From the UHGV virus genome UHGV-0082263: DNA of 10,840 bases. The stretch is one strand, 5' to 3'. Below, piece by piece: positions 2,699-10,786 of this stretch (its first letter is position 1; each line of letters starts with the position of its first letter). Source of the stretch: a virus. The translations under genes and the position numbers were made by a program. Under the pieces are notes generated by a model. It saw only the letters and a program-made list of their open reading frames with translations. It was not told the origin of the DNA and made no database searches.

Positions 2699-3253
2699 AT
2701 GAGAGACGCAGAATTTAGAGCGATGCTTCAGGCATCGAGACAACGTAACAAGCACAACTCCTACGCTTACACAAACAACCCAACCAGCTACGAACTACCC
2801 AAGCTCACCAAGAAAGAACGCAAAGGCATTGACGAAGTAATTCGTAGCATTACGCCACGAGACAGATTTATGCCAACCAGAAAGAGCACCCAGAACACTA
2901 TTAAAAATTATCTGGCTAACTTTGATTCTTACGAACAATTACCAAGTAAGATTGAAGATGTAATTATCGGATTCTGTAGAAGTGAAGGCCACCCCAAATA
3001 CAACAGAAAGCTATTTTATCTGCTAAAGAATCTTGATGAAATTAACTCAGCTACCGTGACAAATCATCTTCAGCGTCAAGCAACCAGACTTAGCTACGAA
3101 TTACCAACCGATGCCTATTGTGCATTGCTTGCTGTAATGTGTGCAAAGCTAATTGGTATTGTTGAACATCATATTGCCGTTGGGAATATTGAGCCAATGG
3201 AAAACGAGCAACCAGACTTTGAGTTTGACCCGTATATTTTGGAGGAATTTTAA
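2699..3253 (+). CDS. Hypothetical protein (184 aa), first gene of a four-gene coupled cassette
   Basis: ATG 2699, stop TAA 3251-3253, 1 nt before the ATG of the next gene. SD is weak (GAGAG at 2683-2687). Acidic C-terminus (EPMENEQPDFEFDPYILEEF). No motif recognised. Confidence 0.55.
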   Translation: MRDAEFRAMLQASRQRNKHNSYAYTNNPTSYELPKLTKKERKGIDEVIRSITPRDRFMPTRKSTQNTIKNYLANFDSYEQLPSKIEDVIIGFCRSEGHPKYNRKLFYLLKNLDEINSATVTNHLQRQATRLSYELPTDAYCALLAVMCAKLIGIVEHHIAVGNIEPMENEQPDFEFDPYILEEF

Positions 3254-3254
3254 A

Positions 3255-3542
3255 ATGAAAACCAGACACACACTAACCAGAGTTACAAAGACAGCCTTTG
3301 AAGAACTTAACAAAATTAAGAAGGTTACAGGTCTTTCACATGCAGCAGTGATGAAGCTTGCAATTAACCGTGATATTAACGAGCAGGATTTGCTTAATAG
3401 TCGCTTAGAGGCAGCAAGACACCATATCAGGATTAAGCAAGATGACCTTGATAGTCTGAAATCTTTAAATGCTTTTGGACTGGATTTAGCAAGGTTGCTA
3501 AGCATCAAAATTCACAAGTTAAAGTTAGAGATGGGGGTCTGA
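3255..3542 (+). CDS. Putative ribbon-helix-helix (CopG/Arc-like) DNA-binding protein, 95 aa (tentative)
   Basis: ATG 3255 with GGAGGA at 3241-3246 (8-nt spacing). I chose this start over the track start at 3153, which would overlap the upstream gene by 100 nt. The N-terminus TLTRVTKTAFEELNKIKKVTGLSHAAVMKLAI fits the strand / helix / G-x-S turn / helix pattern of RHH folds. Pattern-level only. Confidence 0.5.
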   Translation: MKTRHTLTRVTKTAFEELNKIKKVTGLSHAAVMKLAINRDINEQDLLNSRLEAARHHIRIKQDDLDSLKSLNAFGLDLARLLSIKIHKLKLEMGV

Positions 3543-3757
3543 TGCTATGCGTTACCTTTGAATACCACACGGATAAAATGATTCGCTACATCTCCGACCT
3601 CCTGATTAAAGGAAACGGATTCGGTGACATCCATAACTCAAAAGATATTTTCATTAAAGCCATTGGCCCAAATGAAGCACTGAAAACAGCAGTTAAACCG
3701 GAATGGTTTGAGCGTCACAAGATTGAATTAGGTTATTGGGGTGAGGAGGTTTTATGA
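3542..3757 (+). CDS. Hypothetical protein (71 aa)
   Basis: ATG 3542 overlaps the upstream TGA (tgATG); G-rich tract at 3533-3537. Its stop overlaps the start of the next gene (ATGA at 3754-3757). No motif recognised. Confidence 0.45.
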   Translation: MLCVTFEYHTDKMIRYISDLLIKGNGFGDIHNSKDIFIKAIGPNEALKTAVKPEWFERHKIELGYWGEEVL

Positions 3758-4041
3758 AACCTTGGCATGAAGATGTTAGACGATATTTTACAGAACACCT
3801 TATCTATGATGAATCCAGTGATTCCCTGTGCTGGTCTGATGGAGAGTCAGTCACGATAAATACCGACGACTACGGCAACAAAACATTTAATATAGGCCGA
3901 TATACTTTCTACGTGAAATATGTTGTCTGGTTCCTTTATCATGGCTATCAATCCAACAAGCAAATTATCCATCGAAATGGTAACAGAGCCGATACCAGAC
4001 CAAAAAATCTTATGCAAGTCCGAGACTTTAAGAGAAATTAG
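3754..4041 (+). CDS. Small HNH endonuclease (HNH_3-like, phage/homing type), 95 aa
   Basis: ATG 3754 with GAGGAGG at 3743-3749, stop TAG 4039-4041. The C-terminal IIHRNGNRADTRPKNL matches the H-x-N-G-N ... D-x-R-x-x-N-L core I recall for the HNH_3/AP2-type family. No search run. Confidence 0.55.
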   Translation: MKPWHEDVRRYFTEHLIYDESSDSLCWSDGESVTINTDDYGNKTFNIGRYTFYVKYVVWFLYHGYQSNKQIIHRNGNRADTRPKNLMQVRDFKRN

Positions 4042-4197: not shown

Positions 4198-4503
4198 ATG
4201 AATTATTCAATGCAAGTTATGGTTGACCAAGAAACTATGAATTGGCTTAATGACCTGAACAGGTCAGGCTTTAATATCTATTTCATGCATTGTTTTGAAG
4301 CATCAACGTATATTGACAAGCATATAATCAACGAAATTAAACTTGGTGACTTTGTTCACAAACTGGAAGTAACAGACCCAGACTACAAGAGATTTATCAC
4401 AAGCGAATGCAACCGACTTGATTTAAGCCCGGAGCAATTATTGAAGCTGAATGTATTCTTAACCTATCAGAATGAATTAAACCCTTACAGTGAGGTGATG
4501 TAA
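4198..4503 (+). CDS. Hypothetical protein (101 aa)
   Basis: ATG 4198 with AAAGGAG at 4181-4187, stop TAA 4501-4503. No motif recognised. Confidence 0.5.
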   Translation: MNYSMQVMVDQETMNWLNDLNRSGFNIYFMHCFEASTYIDKHIINEIKLGDFVHKLEVTDPDYKRFITSECNRLDLSPEQLLKLNVFLTYQNELNPYSEVM

Positions 4504-4580
4504 TGATGCTCGTTATTCTCTGGACGGCTTTAGGGTTATTTGTTGGTTGCTGGGTAGGTAATACGGTAAATAAGAATTGA
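4503..4580 (+). CDS. Small hydrophobic peptide (24-25 aa), possible membrane peptide
   Basis: Tandem ATGs at 4503 and 4506 overlapping the upstream TAA; GAGGTG at 4492-4497 (5 or 8 nt spacing); stop TGA 4578-4580. Translation MMLVILWTALGLFVGCWVGNTVNKN is one hydrophobic helix plus a short polar tail. Below the length cutoff of the ORF track. Confidence 0.35.
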   Translation: MMLVILWTALGLFVGCWVGNTVNKN

Positions 4581-4604
4581 TGTTACCAATCTGTTAAAAA
4601 GCTG

Positions 4605-4633
4605 TTGACAAATAACCTTAAGCATGACATAAT
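4605..4633 (+). promoter_or_regulatory. Near-consensus sigma70-type promoter (TTGACA - 17 bp - CATAAT)
   Basis: Perfect -35 TTGACA at 4605-4610, exactly 17-bp spacer, -10 CATAAT at 4628-4633 (5/6 to TATAAT). Predicted start about 4640. First downstream gene with an SD is at 5034. Confidence 0.5.
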
Positions 4634-4642
4634 TTTAATTAT

Positions 4643-4659
4643 AGAGAGAATTTCTCTCT
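4643..4659 (+). promoter_or_regulatory. Perfect palindrome AGAGAGAA-t-TTCTCTCT at the predicted transcript start (operator candidate or 5-prime hairpin)
   Basis: 8-bp arms with a 1-nt centre, beginning about 10 nt after the -10 hexamer. Confidence 0.45.
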
Positions 4660-4808
4660 TATTTCTTTCAACAATTCCATCTACATCTAGGGATAGTTAT
4701 TCTGAAAGGTGCAATGCTTTTCGCTACATGGCCTCTTATATAACCTGAGAGGCTATCTCGAAAAGTCTTTGTTCATTCATTCGTTTGAATCCTTTACAGC
4801 TTTGCCCT

Positions 4809-4836
4809 GATTCATGATTAGGGCTTTCTTTAAGAG
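4809..4836 (+). repeat. Leader direct repeat copy 1 (gattcatgattagggctttctttaagag)
   Basis: About 25/29 identical to 4913-4941. Confidence 0.55.
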
Positions 4837-4912
4837 TTTTTAAACAGAGCTTTTAAAGAAAGTTTTCCTGAAACTTCGTTAACGTTATAAGCAAACCTTC
4901 AAAGCCCTTCAC

Positions 4913-4941
4913 AGATTATGTTTAGGGCTTTTCTTAATAGA
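4913..4941 (+). repeat. Leader direct repeat copy 2 (gattatgtttagggcttttcttaatagag)
   Basis: Direct repeat of 4809-4836. Its 3-prime end overlaps the 13-mer tcttaatagagca (4932-4944), whose perfect reverse complement tgctctattaaga lies at 4993-5005. Confidence 0.55.
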
Positions 4942-4992
4942 GCATCTTTAATAAATCGTTAAGTCATCTTCTAAGTGTATTGGCGTTGAAGG

Positions 4993-5005
4993 TGCTCTAT
5001 TAAGA
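4993..5005 (+). repeat. 13-bp perfect inverted-repeat partner (tgctctattaaga) of 4932-4944
   Basis: Exact reverse complement of 4932-4944, 48 bp away and about 15 nt upstream of the SD (AGAGGA 5021-5026) of the 5034 gene. Confidence 0.6.
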
Positions 5006-5033
5006 AATAACCACACACTTAGAGGAAAAAATA

Positions 5034-5744
5034 ATGACAAACGATATTTACATTAATGGCAAAGTGATTGATAGCTTCGGTGACTGGTCGCCACAGACTG
5101 AACATCCAGCTATCACTATCCAGCGCAAAGAACACGATGAAAGAATTGCACTTGAGCAAGAGTTAAAGATGTCACCAAAGGTAATTTCCTTTGTGTCTCC
5201 TGAGCCTCAAGAGATGCCTGATGTATGCAAAACTGAAGCATTACTTGAGCTTGAGCGTGAATATTACCCACAGTTAAAAGCACAGCGTATTAAACTTGAT
5301 GACGCTTACAGCAAAGTTACCCTGATGCAATCAGCTATTGAGCCGTCAGAATTTGAGATTCAGGATGAATTGTCACAGAAACCATTTGTCTATTACAAAT
5401 ATGAAGACAATGATGGTTTTGGTACTTTTCCTGAGAATATCCCAGACGTGATTAATAATCTTTCTGACGGATATCGAATTGTGAAGATGGTTAAGGCATC
5501 AAGAGGTGCTGGTCAGTTTATCTACATGACCAATAAAAGCGATGAAGAACTCTGTGAAATTGCTAAACAGAACATCTTGGCATCACGTAACAAGCAGCTT
5601 GATAGTGCTAAGTTGTATCTCTCAAGAGAGCTTCAGGCTATGAAAGAGCTTGTGAAAGAATATGAAGATGCTAAGAAGGTTGCTATGCAGGCTGATATTG
5701 AGCAGCTTACGAAGATTTCTCAGAAATATGCAAAGGCTATTTGA
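5034..5744 (+). CDS. Hypothetical protein (236 aa), first gene of the operon containing the tape-measure gene
   Basis: ATG 5034 with AGAGGA at 5021-5026, stop TGA 5742-5744. Acidic, helix-rich C-terminal half. No motif recognised. Confidence 0.6.
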   Translation: MTNDIYINGKVIDSFGDWSPQTEHPAITIQRKEHDERIALEQELKMSPKVISFVSPEPQEMPDVCKTEALLELEREYYPQLKAQRIKLDDAYSKVTLMQSAIEPSEFEIQDELSQKPFVYYKYEDNDGFGTFPENIPDVINNLSDGYRIVKMVKASRGAGQFIYMTNKSDEELCEIAKQNILASRNKQLDSAKLYLSRELQAMKELVKEYEDAKKVAMQADIEQLTKISQKYAKAI

Positions 5745-5752
5745 GGTGATTA

Positions 5753-6169
5753 ATGAGTCCTATTTTTTATATTCTTAGAAAGAAGTTTGATGCTATCGAT
5801 GAGATTACCGGATATCTTCGTGAACGTATTTACGAAGGTGAGTCTCTGGAAGATTTAAAATTTGATGGTCGAGATGACTTAACTTTCCTGATTAGGGATG
5901 TTAATCGGGATATTGAGCGATTAAGAGATAGTTATAATCCACCAGAAATTACTGAAATGATAGACTTTGATGATGGAACAAGAACTATTAGCGTAGCGAT
6001 TGGTGGGAGTTACATCAGGGACTTTACCAGTAAAACTAATGAAGAGTTACTTGCTGAATTTAAAGATGACTATCTAAAAAATCTCGATTCTTATCAGGCA
6101 GAATTAGATAAGCGGTATCGGGATTTAGCTGGAAAAGGCTACTTAATAGAGGAATTGCTGGACTTCTAA
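5753..6169 (+). CDS. Hypothetical acidic protein (138 aa); tail-assembly-chaperone-like by position only
   Basis: ATG 5753 with GAGGTG at 5743-5748. Acidic composition and a position two genes upstream of the tape-measure gene fit a G-type tail assembly chaperone, but no motif supports this. Confidence 0.5.
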   Translation: MSPIFYILRKKFDAIDEITGYLRERIYEGESLEDLKFDGRDDLTFLIRDVNRDIERLRDSYNPPEITEMIDFDDGTRTISVAIGGSYIRDFTSKTNEELLAEFKDDYLKNLDSYQAELDKRYRDLAGKGYLIEELLDF

Positions 6170-6192
6170 TTGAAACTAATGTGAGGTGGTGA

Positions 6193-6411
6193 ATGATTGA
6201 TTTAACAGAACGCTATGAGCTTATTAAAGCAATTAGTGAACGATTGAAAGAACAACCCAACAAACCAAAGCTACGAATTGGAAATCAACGTCGAGTTATC
6301 ACCTCACACAAACCAAAGGTACGTAAGATTCCTTCATGGTGCTTAGATAAATTACCATGTGACGCACAGATTTTAGGTGATGATGGGATGTATTCTTACG
6401 TTTACCATTAA
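6193..6411 (+). CDS. Hypothetical basic protein (72 aa)
   Basis: ATG 6193 with GAGGTGG at 6183-6189. No motif recognised. Confidence 0.45.
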   Translation: MIDLTERYELIKAISERLKEQPNKPKLRIGNQRRVITSHKPKVRKIPSWCLDKLPCDAQILGDDGMYSYVYH

Positions 6412-6454
6412 TTTGAGATTAGCTTCTAATAGAATTGGTTGGGTAAAAATCTAC

Positions 6455-6495
6455 GGGAGAGATTATCGAGTGACATCGGTAGCCCTCCCTTTTTT
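6455..6495 (+). terminator. Possible intrinsic terminator or attenuator hairpin followed by a T6 run
   Basis: GGGAGAG (6455-6461) pairs with CCCTCCC (6483-6489) with one mismatch, then TTTTTT (6490-6495). The 21-nt loop is atypically long, and the site sits inside an apparent operon. Confidence 0.25.
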
Positions 6496-6545
6496 GTATA
6501 TGAGGATAGTCTTCTATCCGAAGTCTATGAGGTGAAATATGAACA

Positions 6546-8717
6546 ATGGCACAGTTTAAAGTTGATGATTTTCTGATTGAGTTAAGTTTTAACTCTCAGA
6601 AAGTTTTAAAAGGTCTGGAAAAAGCCGAGAAACAAACGATGCAGGTAGCATCACGAATTGAGAAGCGATTGAATAAGGCGTTTAAAGTGAATCCTACGCC
6701 TTTAAATGATTCTCTCAAACTAATGGAAAAGAATGTCGATAAAACTGTTTCCAAGATTGAGCAGCGTCTTAAAAACACTAAAGCGTTTAAGATTAAAACT
6801 GAAATTGAGGATACTCTAAAGCCACTTAGACAGCCAAGACAGCCACGAATTAGCGGCAACAGAGCAATCACAGCAGCGCATAGCGTGAATATGTCTAAGC
6901 TTGGTGATATTAATCCGCTGATGGCTAAAATGTTTAAAGCACAGTATTACAGCTTAAGCGGTAAGGCTGGTAATATTGGAAGTGAAAAGTTTAACGCTGA
7001 ACTTGCAATATTAAATCAATCTCTTCGTGAAACGTTGAATAAACTCAGGTCACAGACAAAGACCACCAGCATTAACAATACAAGCGACGCATTTAATAAT
7101 CTTGCAAGCAATGCAATCAAGTTATCTGGTGCATTTTACTCTGTGATGGGTGCTCTTAACGCTTACAAGGCCATCATGAATGCAGGTCTTAAACGAGATT
7201 CCGCACAGAGAGCCGCTAAGTTTGTACTTGGTGATAAAGCATCTGAAGCTGAGGTATTTATTCGAAATTTAGCAGACAAGACAGGTCTTAATATCTCTGA
7301 AGGGCTATCAAGCTACGCTAAGTTTGCAGCAGGTGCTCAGGGTTCTATGTCACAGGAACAGACACAGGAGCTATTTGGTAATGCAACGGCTATGAGTCGC
7401 TTAATGGGGCTTTCTAACGATGAGCTAAACGGCATTTTGAAAGCTTTTGAGCAGATGGCGAGCAAGGGCAAGATTCAGGCTGAAGAGCTTCGTGGACAGT
7501 TGGGTGACCGTATGGCTGGTGCATTTAAGCTATTCGCTGAAGCATTGGGTATGACTGCTACAGAGCTTGATAAAGCGATGAAAGACGGGAAGATTTTAAG
7601 TAGTGATACTCTCCCTAAAGTCGCTAAACAGATGGGCTTGATGATTGATAAAGCGGGTGGCTGGGCTGAAGTCGCTAAGAGCACTCAGACAGCTTTAGGG
7701 AAACTGGCTAACAACTGGGATGATACGATGGTGAAAATCTTCTCAGGTTCACAGGATGAGCTAAACGGCTTCTTATCCAGCCTGAGTAACCTGCTTAGTG
7801 AAATGGGGATGAGTTCTTCTATCGCTGGTGATGCTATCGGTGGACTTATCGACATGCTTAAAGCTGGTGTAGATGACATCCGTATCTTTAACAATCACCT
7901 TGAAGGCTGGATTTTACAGACTAAGAAGTTCTATTACAGCCTTGATGACACTAAACGAAAACTACTTGATGAAGTCGGTGATGGATTTATCAATTTTGTC
8001 AAAGGTCTTGCTATAGCGTTATCTGCAAAGACGCTATTCAGTGCCACTACAGGGATTATGAACCTGACAAGAGCAATCACAACGTTAGGTACAAGAGCTA
8101 ATCAGGTGGCTGGTCAGGTAGCTACTGGTAAAGGTGGTGGAAAACTGAAAGGTGTAGCTGGTGGTGTAGGTAGTGCTCTTGCAATTGGTTATGCTGATGA
8201 CGGTTATGAAACAGCGTTAGCATTAGCTTCAATGATTCCACAAATCAGAGGCGTCACTCTTGGTTTATATGCATTGAAGAAAGCACTGGATTTTATGAAT
8301 CAGGAAGTAGTCAAAAACGCTAATATGCATCCATCTGGGGTAGGTGTGGGTAGTGACTTTAATCCTGTGTATTCTGGTGACCCTAATAAACCGAATATGA
8401 TTAACGAAGGATGGAGTAGAATTTTTAGTTCAATGGGTGAATTGTTTAACAATGCCACAATGAATATTGCAAGATTCAATCATCCAGAATTGATTACCAT
8501 GAAACAAGATGCATCATTAACGAGCACTGACATCCAAAATCTAAGAGATGAAATTAGTGCTTTAAGTAAGCGTATTCAGGAGCCTGTGAAAGTTTCACTT
8601 GGTGGTGAAGTTGCCATTAAACCAGATGAAACCAGCTTTATGACCTTTAGCAGTAATATCTACGACCAATATGCAGAAGCTACGTTATTAAGTTCATCAT
8701 TCCCAGAAGATGATTGA
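6546..8717 (+). CDS. Phage tail tape-measure protein (723 aa)
   Basis: ATG 6546 with GAGGTGA at 6529-6535, stop TGA 8715-8717. The central segment LNGILKAFEQMASKGKIQAEELRGQLGDRMAGAFKLFAEALGMTATELDKAMKDGKILSSDTLPKV matches the conserved tape-measure domain signature as I recall it. Also has a glycine-rich hydrophobic stretch (GKGGGKLKGVAGGVGSALAIGY) and a long helical N-terminal region, both typical of tape-measure proteins. Confidence 0.8.
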   Translation: MAQFKVDDFLIELSFNSQKVLKGLEKAEKQTMQVASRIEKRLNKAFKVNPTPLNDSLKLMEKNVDKTVSKIEQRLKNTKAFKIKTEIEDTLKPLRQPRQPRISGNRAITAAHSVNMSKLGDINPLMAKMFKAQYYSLSGKAGNIGSEKFNAELAILNQSLRETLNKLRSQTKTTSINNTSDAFNNLASNAIKLSGAFYSVMGALNAYKAIMNAGLKRDSAQRAAKFVLGDKASEAEVFIRNLADKTGLNISEGLSSYAKFAAGAQGSMSQEQTQELFGNATAMSRLMGLSNDELNGILKAFEQMASKGKIQAEELRGQLGDRMAGAFKLFAEALGMTATELDKAMKDGKILSSDTLPKVAKQMGLMIDKAGGWAEVAKSTQTALGKLANNWDDTMVKIFSGSQDELNGFLSSLSNLLSEMGMSSSIAGDAIGGLIDMLKAGVDDIRIFNNHLEGWILQTKKFYYSLDDTKRKLLDEVGDGFINFVKGLAIALSAKTLFSATTGIMNLTRAITTLGTRANQVAGQVATGKGGGKLKGVAGGVGSALAIGYADDGYETALALASMIPQIRGVTLGLYALKKALDFMNQEVVKNANMHPSGVGVGSDFNPVYSGDPNKPNMINEGWSRIFSSMGELFNNATMNIARFNHPELITMKQDASLTSTDIQNLRDEISALSKRIQEPVKVSLGGEVAIKPDETSFMTFSSNIYDQYAEATLLSSSFPEDD

Positions 8718-8812
8718 TTTAACGGTGTTCTACGTGAATAAAGCAAAGTTAATACCCACACTGAAAAATAATTTTTACGTAGCTCACGCTTAACAGAGAA
8801 AATACTTATATA

Positions 8813-8856
8813 TCAAAGGCTTGGTTAAAAATGATTAAAATACACTAAGCCTTTGA
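8813..8856 (+). promoter_or_regulatory. 10-bp inverted repeat (tcaaaggctt ... aagcctttga) with 24-nt AT-rich spacer, just upstream of the SD of the 8874 gene
   Basis: Arms at 8813-8822 and 8847-8856 are exact reverse complements; the SD AAAGGAG at 8861-8867 follows. Confidence 0.4.
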
Positions 8857-8873
8857 AATCAAAGGAGAATTTA

Positions 8874-9662
8874 ATGATTTACACTAATCAAATCCGCTAC
8901 AGTGGCAAAGATGGCATCTATTTCCACTTAAGAGATAATGTAGATGCCTTCTTAACCCTATCAGCAACTGAGAACATGGAATTTGATAGTCCTATGCAGG
9001 TAACTACACAGAATATGCAATCAGGGCAAACAGTCACAGATAATGTGCAAAGAGCACCCAGAACAATCACTATTAGTGGTGTCGTCGTAGTTGGCTATGA
9101 AGGGAGCTTATTACTAACTCGTCAAGGCCAATTAGTAGAGAACTTCATCGACACTCTTGAAAGCTGGCGTGACCAGAAGCAGATTATTTCGGTCATCTGT
9201 AAAGATGGTATCAAGATTGATGATTCCATTATTACGAGTTTTAAAGCCTCTAAAGATGTTGGTATTTCAAATGGTCTAAGAATCCAGCTAACTTTTCAGG
9301 AAATTAACTTCAAAGCTGTTGTGGGTCAAACTGATATCTCGGCTGCAACTGGAAAGGCTGCCACTACGAATGATGGTGGTGTGACCAGTAAGAAGAATGC
9401 AGGTAACGTGACCACTGAACGCAATAACGCGCCTATGCTATCGTGCAAAGAGCTAATGAGTATTAGCGATGTATCCGGTTACGCTCCAGCTATCAGAAAT
9501 GATATTCTCGATGCTCAGATTAAGTGTAATAAGGCTTGGAAGCTGGACTATTCAGACTTAACAGAAGCTGAAAAAACCAACGTCACCAATGCTAATAGTA
9601 ACGCTGGTCGAGTAGCTTCAAAGCTTAAAAAGTACTCAGTGAACCCTAATAAAAAATACTAA
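8874..9662 (+). CDS. Hypothetical protein (262 aa); possible tail or baseplate component by position
   Basis: ATG 8874 with AAAGGAG at 8861-8867, preferred over the track TTG start at 8853. Stop TAA 9660-9662 overlaps the stop of the convergent recombinase gene. Sits directly downstream of the tape-measure gene. No motif recognised. Confidence 0.55.
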
Positions 9663-10786
9663 GCGTCCACCTCTTCCATATCACCAGCAGGATAAATCCT
9701 TGTTACTGGTTCACCAAAAATAAGCATATCATCTAATGACTGCATCTCATCGGTTGCTTCTTCAAGCGTTAAGGTGTGGTCATCTTTACCATCAAGAGGA
9801 AAACCACGAATCATATTTCCATTGTGAAGATATATATCCACCAGCTTTTCATTACCAGAAACAACAATCTCTTTCACCAGACGCTTAATGATAATCTGGG
9901 CTTCAGTTCTCCCCTCTACAGACTCCATATCAAGACCGCTTAAATCCAAGCTTGATACAGATTTTACCCTCGCCTTTTCTCGTGATAACTGAACTATCAG
10001 TTCATCTTTTTCTTCCTGTTTAACCCGTAGTGCTTCCTGAATCTGAGTGATGTTAGGAAGCTGTATCAGCGTCTCAGTGAGTTTTTCCAGTTCACCATCA
10101 ACGGTGTTTAATCTTCTTTGTAGTTCATCTAATTTAGCTGTATCGGTAGCTTCATCGTGTAGCTGTGACAGTTTGCTGAACAGACGACTACAAAGCTGTG
10201 TATCAAGTAACTTTCTGGACACTGTACCGTAGCTACAACGGGACTCCTTATTACCATTGCAACGGTAAGTACCTTGATAAACGGGTTTACGTATCCCTGT
10301 AGGAGTCATTACAAGCCCACACTTACAACGGATAAGCCCCTTCAGTATGTTCACATATAGCCAGTGTTCACCGCTGGATGTTTTCCCCTTCCCTGTTTCC
10401 TCTAACAGTTGCTGTACAGCGTAAAACTTAGAATCTGTGACAATCTGAGGATAGAACCCTTCAATTTCTTCACGTAACACTGTTTTACGGTCTTCTGTAG
10501 AAATCTTGGCGGGAAGGTAACCTAATACACTTCGTGAAGTCAGGATGTGTTTAACGCTTAAAGCTGACCAGTTACCATCCGGTTTCTTAGTCTTGGATAT
10601 TCTGACCTTACGCTGATTAATGGTCGGGTAACCTTGTTCGTTTAGCCATTTACAGATAGCAAACATCGACATACCAGAAAGACGCTTGTCATAGATGATA
10701 TTCACCAGTGACGCTTTATCTTCATCAACGATGTAGTGTGAACCGTCTTCTGATAGCTCTAACCATCCGGGGGCTTGCTTACCCAT
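9659..10786 (-). CDS. Large serine recombinase, recombinase-domain + zinc-ribbon + coiled-coil portion (375 aa); N-terminal catalytic domain not in this ORF
   Basis: Translation opens with GKQAPGW...[37 protein letters not shown], which looks like the start of the recombinase domain. It then has [16 protein letters not shown]...[21 protein letters not shown], the four-Cys zinc ribbon typical of large serine recombinases, and a long coiled-coil-like C-terminus. No resolvase catalytic motif is present. An in-frame TGA (10796-10798) lies 3 codons upstream of the ATG and no SD precedes the ATG. Confidence 0.8.

Follow-up and report, generated by a model that had tools for sequence, protein, structure and literature searches.

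A conserved, structured leader RNA as a probable default-off gate of the tail-gene operon in an Escherichia coli genomic island

What is the function of the long non-coding region that precedes the tape-measure operon in the virus genome UHGV-0082263? The stretch of DNA analyzed here, referred to as the window, comprises 10,840 nucleotides, and between positions 4605 and 5033 it contains a near-consensus promoter followed by a repeat-rich leader. The original prediction, made from this sequence alone, interpreted the region as a regulated switch of the operon containing the tape-measure gene, acting either through a structured leader RNA or through an array of regulator-binding sites. The former option is borne out by a conserved promoter and a covarying, structured leader in 84 homologues. 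We consider it probable, at roughly 0.6, that this leader is a default-off gate for the tail-gene operon, composed of the promoter, terminators, the occlusion of the Shine-Dalgarno (SD) sequence of the first gene and, probably, a trans-acting antiterminator. The elements involved are as follows (aa, amino acids; ORF, open reading frame).

4580-4604, + strand: upstream promoter element ATGTTACCAATCTGTTAAAAAGCTG, conserved, carrying TGTTA motifs that recur in 11-bp phase and an A-tract.
4605-4633, + strand: sigma-70 promoter with the -35 box TTGACA (4605-4610), a 17-nt spacer, the extended -10 TG (4625-4626) and the -10 box CATAAT (4628-4633).
4643-4659, + strand: P1, a 5'-terminal RNA hairpin that reads AGAGAGA-AUU-UCUCUCU here.
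4704-4722, + strand: P2, the hairpin GAAAGGU[GCAAU]GCUUUUC, of which the loop and closing pairs (GUGCAAUGC) are invariant.
4728-4756, + strand: P3, the hairpin AUGGCCUCUU...GAGAGGCUAU with a variable loop (12 pairs, of which 5 are changed on both sides; 95% of cells paired).
4804-4831, + strand: T1, intrinsic terminator GCCCUGAUU-CAU-GAUUAGGGC (stem 4804-4824) followed by UUUCUUU.
4824-4862, + strand: H5, a hairpin (inverted repeat I4) in which the T1 U-tract CUUUCUUUAAGAG is paired with CUUUUAAAGAAAG.
4901-4936, + strand: T2, intrinsic terminator AAAGCCCU...AGGGCUUU (hairpin 4901-4931, inverted repeat I6) followed by UUUUCUU.
4930-5007, + strand: H8, a long hairpin with a lower stem of 20-22 bp (4930-4951/4986-5007), whose apical region holds the anti-SD sequence.
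4968-4978, + strand: anti-SD sequence CUUCUAAGUGU in the H8 loop, forming 11 contiguous pairs with 5015-5025 (ACACUUAGAGG).
5015-5036, + strand: SD region ACACUUAGAGGA, including the SD sequence AGAGGA (5021-5026) and the ATG (5034) of a gene for 236 aa.
5034-9662, + strand: operon proposed to be gated, with ORFs of 236, 138 and 72 aa that have no family match, the tape-measure gene (6546-8717) and a Dit-like baseplate gene (8853-9662).

Homologues of the leader were compiled from a motif scan of viral and metagenomic contigs, from matches in E. coli genomes and from four Citrobacter loci, the latter of which were found via the upstream protein and not via leader motifs. The approximately 100 homologous leader regions obtained include 84 distinct sequences, 73 of which are less than 95% identical to one another. 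The architecture is retained in all 84 distinct leaders, and every leader element is kept in the Citrobacter loci. The layout is constant: a gene of ~100 aa and a small membrane ORF are followed by 317 to 516 nt that separate the -35 box from the ATG of a gene for ~236 aa, and the ~101-aa gene and the small membrane ORF accompany the leader in 77 of 77 loci, even where the remaining early module differs. The mean pairwise identity is 0.94 for the promoter and 0.76 to 0.77 for 4715-4794, both values being inflated by selection since the motifs used were part of the promoter and 4709-4733; it amounts to 0.73 to 0.76 for 4915-4994 and to 0.60 to 0.70 for the flanking coding sequence. By this measure, the non-coding region is conserved at least as well as the flanking genes. 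Distant islands can be aligned to the leader only across 4560-4796. Neither a GTDB protein-based locus search, which returned just two Escherichia loci, nor a search with the 236-aa protein, in which all relatives listed had at least 90% identity, provided distant leaders. A blastn search of 4400-5300 against 50,697 phage records gave no match, indicating that known phages are not the source of the leader and that it has no extensive antisense match to them. Furthermore, an Rfam cmscan of both strands of the whole window at E values up to 1 retrieved 0 matches (none for IsrK, C4/CI, JUMPstart or known leaders), a tRNA/tmRNA scan of the window was negative, and the leader contains no conserved ORF, its only ORFs being of 25 to 47 aa.

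Two of the checks suggested at the outset, RNA folding of the leader and covariation analysis across homologues, both speak for a structured RNA. Folding of 4640-5040 gave z = -8.1 compared to dinucleotide shuffles, and of 71 segments of 300 nt across the window the three most structured are those that cover the leader (z = -9.4, -7.0, and -4.3; median, -0.5). For P1, P2 and P3 taken together, 96.1% of the alignment cells are paired, as compared to 47 to 62% with slid partners, and 12 pairs are changed on both sides, as compared to 1 to 3 in the slid controls; these values were reached in 0 of 500 shuffles. For T2, H8 and the anti-SD:SD duplex, the corresponding figures are 89.9% versus 32 to 59% and 18 versus 3 to 7 pairs. 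The alifold energy is -120 kcal/mol for the + strand and -94 kcal/mol for the - strand. Among the consensus-pair cells, 1,059 are G.U and 99 are A.C, and because this excess of roughly 10:1 is strand-specific, we assign the structure to RNA of the + strand rather than to DNA. In agreement with this assignment, a covariance model of P1-P3 produced one match of 86 to 145 bits per island, located on the gene strand, and only echoes of 20 to 36 bits on the opposite strand. Sequence and comparison together demonstrate four features of the DNA and its predicted transcript, namely, the promoter, the helices of the RNA, terminator hairpins followed by U-tracts, and the anti-SD:SD pairing.

The promoter had been ranked among the best matches in the window; with 11/12 it is in fact the top promoter-like site, and it can be regarded as a real and conserved sigma-70-type promoter. 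In the whole window, 28 promoter-like sites were detected and 28.0 were expected from shuffles, so the consensus match by itself is weak evidence, and the support comes from conservation: 4605-4633, including the spacer, is nearly invariant in the 84 E. coli and 4 Citrobacter homologues. Transcription is predicted to start near 4640-4641. The element just upstream (4580-4604; mean identity, 0.80 to 0.94 in 77 loci) recurs at the early promoter (2593-2618), its spacing from TTGACA being unchanged, and this holds in 33 homologous islands as well. The early (2593-2647) and second (4580-4645) promoters have in common the upstream element ATGTTACnAATnTGTTA, the -35 box TTGACA, the extended -10 and, in most homologues, the initial transcribed sequence TTGTATATATA, a pattern that is seen in 33 islands; by these shared features, the two promoters are paralogous and probably co-regulated. 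The early promoter, located ~2 kb upstream, has a leader of only ~45 nt without terminators, and the long leader would be what sets the second operon apart, as in an early-to-late cascade. The upstream element is a candidate UP element and/or regulator-binding site and, unlike the palindrome discussed below, the best operator candidate. The triple repeat GGTTATTT/AAATAACC (4534, 4610, and 5005) was also considered as a set of operator half-sites and rejected, its upstream copy not being conserved. The promoter scan of the window revealed no promoter-like site between T2 and the ATG at 5034, which implies that transcription of the operon must cross the terminators.

P1 begins 2 to 3 nt past the predicted start. 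The perfect 17-bp palindrome described at this position is present, AGAGAGAATTTCTCTCT at 4643-4659 being a perfect 8+1+8 palindrome, but its interpretation as an operator was not supported: it is perfect in only 7 of the 84 copies, one to three G.U pairs are needed in 64 of them, and the stem covaries as an RNA hairpin. Most homologues have the P1 sequence AGGGAGA[GCAAU]UCUCUCU, with the loop variants GCAAC, GUAAU, and GUGAU and with covarying stems such as AGGAAGA/UUUUCCU and GGGAGAG/CUCUCC, among others; changes on both sides occur in 5 of 7 pairs, and 94% of the cells are paired (alignment A4). About a quarter of the leaders contain an extra hairpin cassette 5' of P1, indicating that the recurrent feature is a hairpin at the 5' end. 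For P2, 99% of the cells are paired and 2 pairs are changed on both sides. C. braakii has the compensatory stem GGCGAGU/GCUUGCU, and in C. freundii and in one further leader (L006) a 1-nt deletion on each arm compensates for the other. The P2 loop motif had served to select most homologues; the Citrobacter loci, which were not selected in this way, keep the loop. The pairing GCUUUUCG/CGAAAAGU, preferred in the minimum-free-energy fold of the single sequence, was discarded, since it is broken in the Citrobacter sequences, which keep P2. P1 and P2 are separated by a variable, cassette-like stretch, and the leader as a whole evolves by insertion and deletion of hairpin cassettes. In its 5' part (columns 1 to 175 of alignment A4, window 4641-4703), whole cassettes (GAGGAUAGUCUUCUAUCC; GGUGAGGUAUGUUCUAUACCGAAC) are gained or lost and the number of GAUG(G) repeats varies, a turnover that points to frequent recombination between islands.

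Of the terminator-like sites in the window, T1 ranks first; it is missing in O157-type leaders and carries a long loop insertion in L006. T2 is 98% paired with a CG/UA compensation at 4912/4920, and its loop tolerates insertions of 12 to 30 nt, the terminator stems staying intact. A GCCCY..RGGGC hairpin followed by a T-rich tail occurs once or more in 80 of the 84 leaders, and 61 have two, T1 being present together with T2. Termination at T1 would give rise to an RNA of ~190 nt and termination at T2 to one of ~295 nt, and the small RNA that had initially been mentioned as a possibility is therefore compatible with a short product expected from the terminators. H5 consists of 13 pairs and is 99% paired across homologues (39 to 77% with a slid partner). 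The U-tract of each terminator doubles as the 5' arm of the next hairpin, namely, H5 and H8, respectively. The ~29-bp imperfect direct repeat reported at 4809-4836 and 4913-4941 is present, with 23 nt at 83% identity (4814-4836/4918-4940) detected within this span; what is repeated, though, are the 3' arms and U-tracts of T1 and T2 and not an array of regulator-binding sites. The inverted pair 4901-4908/4924-4931 (AAAGCCCT/AGGGCTTT) was found as described. A classical attenuator or riboswitch, by contrast, finds no support: no conserved upstream complement to the 5' arm of T1 or T2 was found in the leaders, and the sole alternative pairing, 4895-4906/4982-4993, lies 3' of T2 and is not conserved.

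The 20-bp helix of H8 is 96.5% paired, with 11 pairs changed on both sides in five sequence classes. The previously noted 13-bp perfect inverted repeat (4932-4944/4993-5005) is the core of this helix, that is, of a 22-nt, 91% complementary pair (4930-4951/4986-5007), and the inverted repeats that had been regarded as possible binding sites are arms of RNA helices with compensatory changes. H8 is a possible substrate of RNase III. The anti-SD:SD duplex is formed in every homologue, with energies of -13 to -23 kcal/mol, and occurs in three covarying classes, CUUCUAAGUGU/ACACUUAGAGG, CUCUUCUAAGU/ACUUAGAAGAGG, and UUCACCUCU/AGAGGUGAA. The first SD sequence had correctly been placed at 5021, and it is this sequence that the duplex engages, so read-through RNA is predicted to be translationally blocked by its structure. 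What the original prediction overlooked were the conserved hairpins P2 and P3, the two terminators as such, the sequestration of the SD sequence by the loop of the long hairpin, and the better DNA-level operator candidate just 5' of the -35 box that is common to the early promoter.

We propose that these elements act in the following manner. (i) The strong promoter at 4605-4633, built like the early promoter, would initiate RNA near 4641. (ii) The 5' end of this RNA would fold into the terminal hairpin P1, then into P2 with its invariant GCAAU loop and into P3. (iii) RNA polymerase would meet the tandem terminators T1 and T2, and most transcripts would end as RNAs of ~190 and ~295 nt. (iv) Transcripts that read through would form the 22-bp H8, the loop of which would pair with the SD sequence of the first gene and block its translation. 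(v) Since the operon would thus be held off at two levels, termination and SD occlusion, full expression would require a trans-acting input, the likeliest being a processive antiterminator that loads either on the nascent hairpins P1/P2, as N does on boxB, or at the promoter, as Q does. It might be supplied by the early operon of the island or by an infecting Felixounavirus-type phage. (vi) H8 would be opened or cleaved, for example, by RNase III, and the SD sequence would be freed. Processive antitermination is favored because no alternative antiterminator fold is conserved, because the promoter is built for high constitutive activity, because an invariant GNRA-like loop on a covarying stem resembles a recognition site, and because the layout parallels that of lambda PR'-tR'/Q (PMC7547250) and of the lambda pL leader. 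The existence and the identity of the antiterminator are nevertheless a tentative part of the proposal, to which we give somewhat less than an even chance. The 101-aa protein, always encoded alongside the leader, is a positional candidate for this factor.

A number of observations weigh against this proposal. (i) The start site, the 3' ends and the termination efficiency of the leader are predictions. (ii) The covariation counts derive from few sequence classes and hence represent few independent events. (iii) T1 and T2 are of moderate stability (about -7 to -10 kcal/mol), and O157-type leaders have a single terminator with the weak U-tract UAUUCAGUU; termination may consequently be partial, and the leader may just set a low constitutive level. 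(iv) The upstream 101-aa protein has no match in Pfam, PHROG, NCBIfam, PADLOC or PDB, and its AlphaFold model (pLDDT [predicted local distance difference test] of 51) is too poor for a fold search. (v) Inspection of the alignments revealed neither a conserved boxA nor a convincing -10-like pause element. (vi) P1 of the window itself lacks the GCAAU loop. (vii) In the Felixounavirus genome wV8, hairpins with a GCAAU loop are not enriched (4 versus 1.6 expected), none of them matches the P1/P2 motif, the exact motifs are absent save for one GTGCAATGC in a coding region, and the P1-P3 covariance model has no match. With neither hairpin enrichment nor a covariance-model match in wV8, the idea that the leader mimics a phage site was left unsupported.

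Alternatively, the short RNA of ~190 or 295 nt might itself be the main product, an abundant trans-acting small RNA (sRNA), with the operon expressed by leak-through only. A strong promoter followed by terminators agrees with this reading. Within the leader, conservation reaches furthest for the 5' module of P2 and P3, which lies in the only section to which distant islands align, and each island has precisely one strong match to the covariance model, located on the gene strand. Precedents also exist, since the by-product RNA of antitermination (StxS, PR'-tR') can acquire an sRNA function (PMC7547250) and IsrK has short and long isoforms (PMC4825925). We nonetheless hold this explanation to be unlikely: a target is not known, blastn revealed no similarity or complementarity to phage genomes, the interrupted U-tails are poor for Hfq-type sRNAs, and the equally conserved, covarying H8 and anti-SD sequence, which are sensible only in a read-through mRNA, would be left unexplained. 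The 5' module is not more complementary to the SD-blocking region than shuffled sequences are, leaving a trans activation like that of IsrK unsupported. An sRNA would also be compatible with the default-off gate and does not exclude it. Less probable still is a purely constitutive attenuator and stabilizer that fixes a low ratio of tail-gene expression in the absence of a trans factor, all regulation taking place at the promoter. The moderate to weak terminator hairpins, including the class with a single terminator and a poor U-tract, point in this direction, as do the lack of a recognized antiterminator gene and the upstream DNA element at both promoters, which could carry all of the regulation. 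5'-Terminal hairpins are, in addition, classical mRNA stabilizers, as in the ompA 5' untranslated region. Yet to stack T1, T2 and the sequestration of the SD sequence after a promoter of nearly maximal strength would be an odd route to a low constitutive output, and the invariant GCAAU loop on the covarying P2 stem argues for recognition by a partner and not for stability alone.

Explanations at the level of DNA, according to which the palindrome is an operator and the repeats are a repressor or activator array or a replication or packaging site, appear improbable to us. A DNA-binding regulator at the promoter is plausible given the TGTTA-phased element common with the early promoter, hardly any variation is seen in the spacer of the promoter or in the 25 bp that precede the promoter, and the island has a weak TerS-like ORF and an HNH gene. 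The rarity of perfect copies of the palindrome, most of which need G.U pairs, and the strand-specific excess of G.U over A.C (~10:1), which reflects RNA, are both at odds with a DNA site; the repeats consist of halves of terminators and of arms of helices in which changes compensate for one another, instead of conserved sequence motifs, and an iteron-like tandem array was not detected, the only repeat reported by TRF (Tandem Repeats Finder) being one of 13 nt in 1.9 copies inside H5. Hardly credible, finally, is a locus resembling type III toxin-antitoxin systems, in which the structured RNA would be the antitoxin, the terminator leaky and the 236-aa protein the toxin. ToxIN-type loci consist of a promoter, a non-coding RNA, an intrinsic terminator and an ORF, and this order is similar here, but there are no tandem antitoxin repeats, the 236-aa protein has no match to ToxN or in Pfam or PADLOC, and its ORF is the first of a five-gene operon that ends in tail genes. 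The default-off gate is the reading that we retain.

Which genes would be subject to this gate? The window corresponds to a genomic island of E. coli of ~10 kb that is 99.8% identical to strain TUM1886, in which it lies between ymdF and wrbA. Related islands are present in 477 of 5,426 complete E. coli genomes (~9%) and also in Citrobacter; their sites in E. coli are wrbA, yecE, and the interval from yciI to tonB, and each island adjoins a large serine recombinase gene. We found no description of this island in the literature searched. It occurs in just 8 to 9 O157:H7 genomes, and the perfect matches exclude the reference strains with published sRNA maps. On the + strand, a gene for a Dam methylase is followed by a non-coding region with the early promoter, the early block (a 184-aa ORF, a weakly TerS-like 95-aa ORF, a 71-aa ORF, an HNH endonuclease, the 101-aa protein, and a 25-aa hydrophobic ORF), the non-coding region 4581-5033, the ORFs of 236, 138, and 72 aa, the tape-measure gene and the Dit-like gene. 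Compared with virulent Felixounavirus phages, the tape-measure and baseplate genes reach a DNA identity of up to 93%, and the baseplate protein shares 74% of its residues with its phage counterpart. The island contains no capsid or large-terminase genes; it may be either a satellite of a lytic phage or a defence island that interferes with the tails of such a phage.

Several other observations were made on the island. Homologues of the 236-aa protein (5034-5744) are named "transposase" by RefSeq/PGAP; no support for this was found in Pfam, NCBIfam, PHROG, PADLOC or PDB, and the name appears unfounded. Sequence searches of PDB with the 236-aa and the 101-aa proteins yielded nothing meaningful. 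The 25-aa hydrophobic ORF (4503-4580; MMLVILWTALGLFVGCWVGNTVNKN) overlaps the stop codon of the 101-aa gene and is conserved in the homologues, where its changes are of the synonymous type, and in Citrobacter an ORF of 74 aa is found at this place; the 25-aa ORF likely encodes a real small membrane protein. The 95-aa ORF (3255-3542) has a weak, sub-threshold match to the P27 family of small terminases (E = 7e-4), and the gene for the HNH endonuclease (3754-4041) is nearby. The pairing of TerS and HNH proteins is typical of cos-type packaging modules, which hints at an island that redirects packaging. The non-coding region 1846-2698, probably the main regulatory switch of the island, has divergent promoter-like sites on the + strand at 2619-2647 (TTGACA-17-TAGTAT with TG) and on the - strand at 2610-2581, the repeats CTCTGGGGTTAT(T)CGC at about 1897-1915 and 2066-2083, and another exact copy of GTGCAATGC at 2515-2523. 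The serine recombinase ORF (9659-10786, - strand) has 375 aa, as compared to ~500 to 550 aa in related islands (1524 bp in L004 and 1644 bp in L002). In the TUM1886 copy (L001 15943-23657), the baseplate gene is broken by IS3 and IS1414, and ISEc12 and a second IS1414 are found beyond the recombinase; many copies of the island are decaying.

The relevance of the leader follows from its position. About one in eleven complete E. coli genomes carries a member of this island family, and the sole recognizable cargo behind the leader consists of tape-measure and baseplate proteins with close relatives in virulent Felix O1-like phages, a group that has found use in typing and therapy. The timing of the synthesis of these tail proteins would be controlled at the leader, and identification of its trigger would distinguish between a satellite, a defence based on tail poisoning, and a remnant as the nature of the island. 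Its study could reveal a new antitermination factor with its RNA site, and for practical purposes the leader would provide a compact, tightly-off expression cassette and could serve to mark the island family. The interest would be higher if the trigger were infection by a virulent phage. In this respect, we put forward as a speculation, and a doubtful one, that the leader is the infection-sensing switch of an undescribed family of satellites or defence islands in E. coli and Citrobacter, directed against virulent Felixounavirus phages, the twin GCAAU hairpins being a new boxB-like site for a new non-lambdoid antiterminator that is encoded by the island (e.g., the 101-aa protein) or by the phage. 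If this were true, the antiterminator would take the polymerase past both terminators, and tape-measure and baseplate proteins that serve as decoys or for hijacking would be released.

How does the proposed gate relate to known regulatory systems? In the lambdoid PR'-6S/StxS-tR'/Q arrangement (PMC7547250), there is likewise a near-consensus promoter with intrinsic termination within ~200 nt, ahead of structural genes; for the island, this likeness is drawn from sequence and conservation only. A small conserved gene immediately upstream occupies the position of Q, and a short by-product RNA of ~190 nt is expected as at PR'-tR'. There are also differences: a Q-family protein was not detected in the island (no Pfam, PHROG, NCBIfam or PDB match for the 101-aa protein), no pause-inducing -10-like element like that of PR' was recognized in the leader, and the leader has two terminators and an SD-sequestering hairpin. 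Both the spacer of the promoter and the initial transcribed sequence, which is TTGTATATATA in most homologues, show conservation, and inspection revealed no conserved TAnnnT hexamer in this part. In contrast to a lambdoid phage, moreover, the island is of ~10 kb with a serine recombinase and only tail genes, and sequence or Rfam similarity is lacking.

The lambda pL leader (nutL boxA/boxB-RNase III hairpin-N) resembles that of the island in its promoter-proximal short hairpins with GNRA-like pentaloops and in a long duplex further downstream that adjoins the SD sequence of the first gene. P1 and P2 are 7-bp hairpins with GCAAU loops, for which we claim a resemblance to boxB only, given that P1 of the window lacks the loop. 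Unlike lambda pL, the island has two hairpins with 7-bp stems ~60 nt apart, a boxA that is not conserved, and terminators that lie between the hairpins and the first gene. The one boxA candidate (CGCUCUUA-like), CUCUCUUA at 4653-4660, was dismissed, as it overlaps the 3' arm of P1 and is replaced by unrelated sequence in other leader classes. An arginine-rich-motif protein comparable to N was not identified in the island, and no family match was obtained; basic stretches, recognized only by eye, are found in the 72-aa ORF (6193-6411) and at the N terminus of the 184-aa ORF (2699-3253). As an observation on phage promoters, the early region of wV8 (L142, 8100-13640) contains repeated units of a promoter and a 5' hairpin (TTGACA..., then GGGGAGGGAAUGACCUUCCCC) before each small early gene, a design that resembles the island promoter and P1, with non-homologous sequence.

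At the IsrK locus of Salmonella Gifsy-1 (PMC4825925), as in the island, one promoter gives rise to a short terminated RNA and to a read-through mRNA inactivated by structure. Sequence and gene content are unrelated, no Rfam match to IsrK was obtained, and a trans pairing of the short with the long RNA as for IsrK was rejected, the best duplex between the 5' and 3' modules being within ~1 to 2 standard deviations of shuffles in 8 representative leaders. The immunity leader of satellite P4 (CI RNA/seqA-seqC) and the leaders of type III toxin-antitoxin loci are similar in that a non-coding RNA opens a satellite or defence operon and premature termination is the control point; different from these, the island has no C4/CI match in Rfam, no seq-type repeats complementary to an internal RNA, and no tandem array. 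The regulatory logic is a known one, that of lambda PR'-tR', the N leader and IsrK, and the RNA is without sequence or family kinship to known examples. Three traits of this leader are unusual: its two GNRA-like hairpins, its tandem terminators with U-tracts that form part of the next hairpins, and an SD sequence paired to the loop of a 22-bp hairpin.

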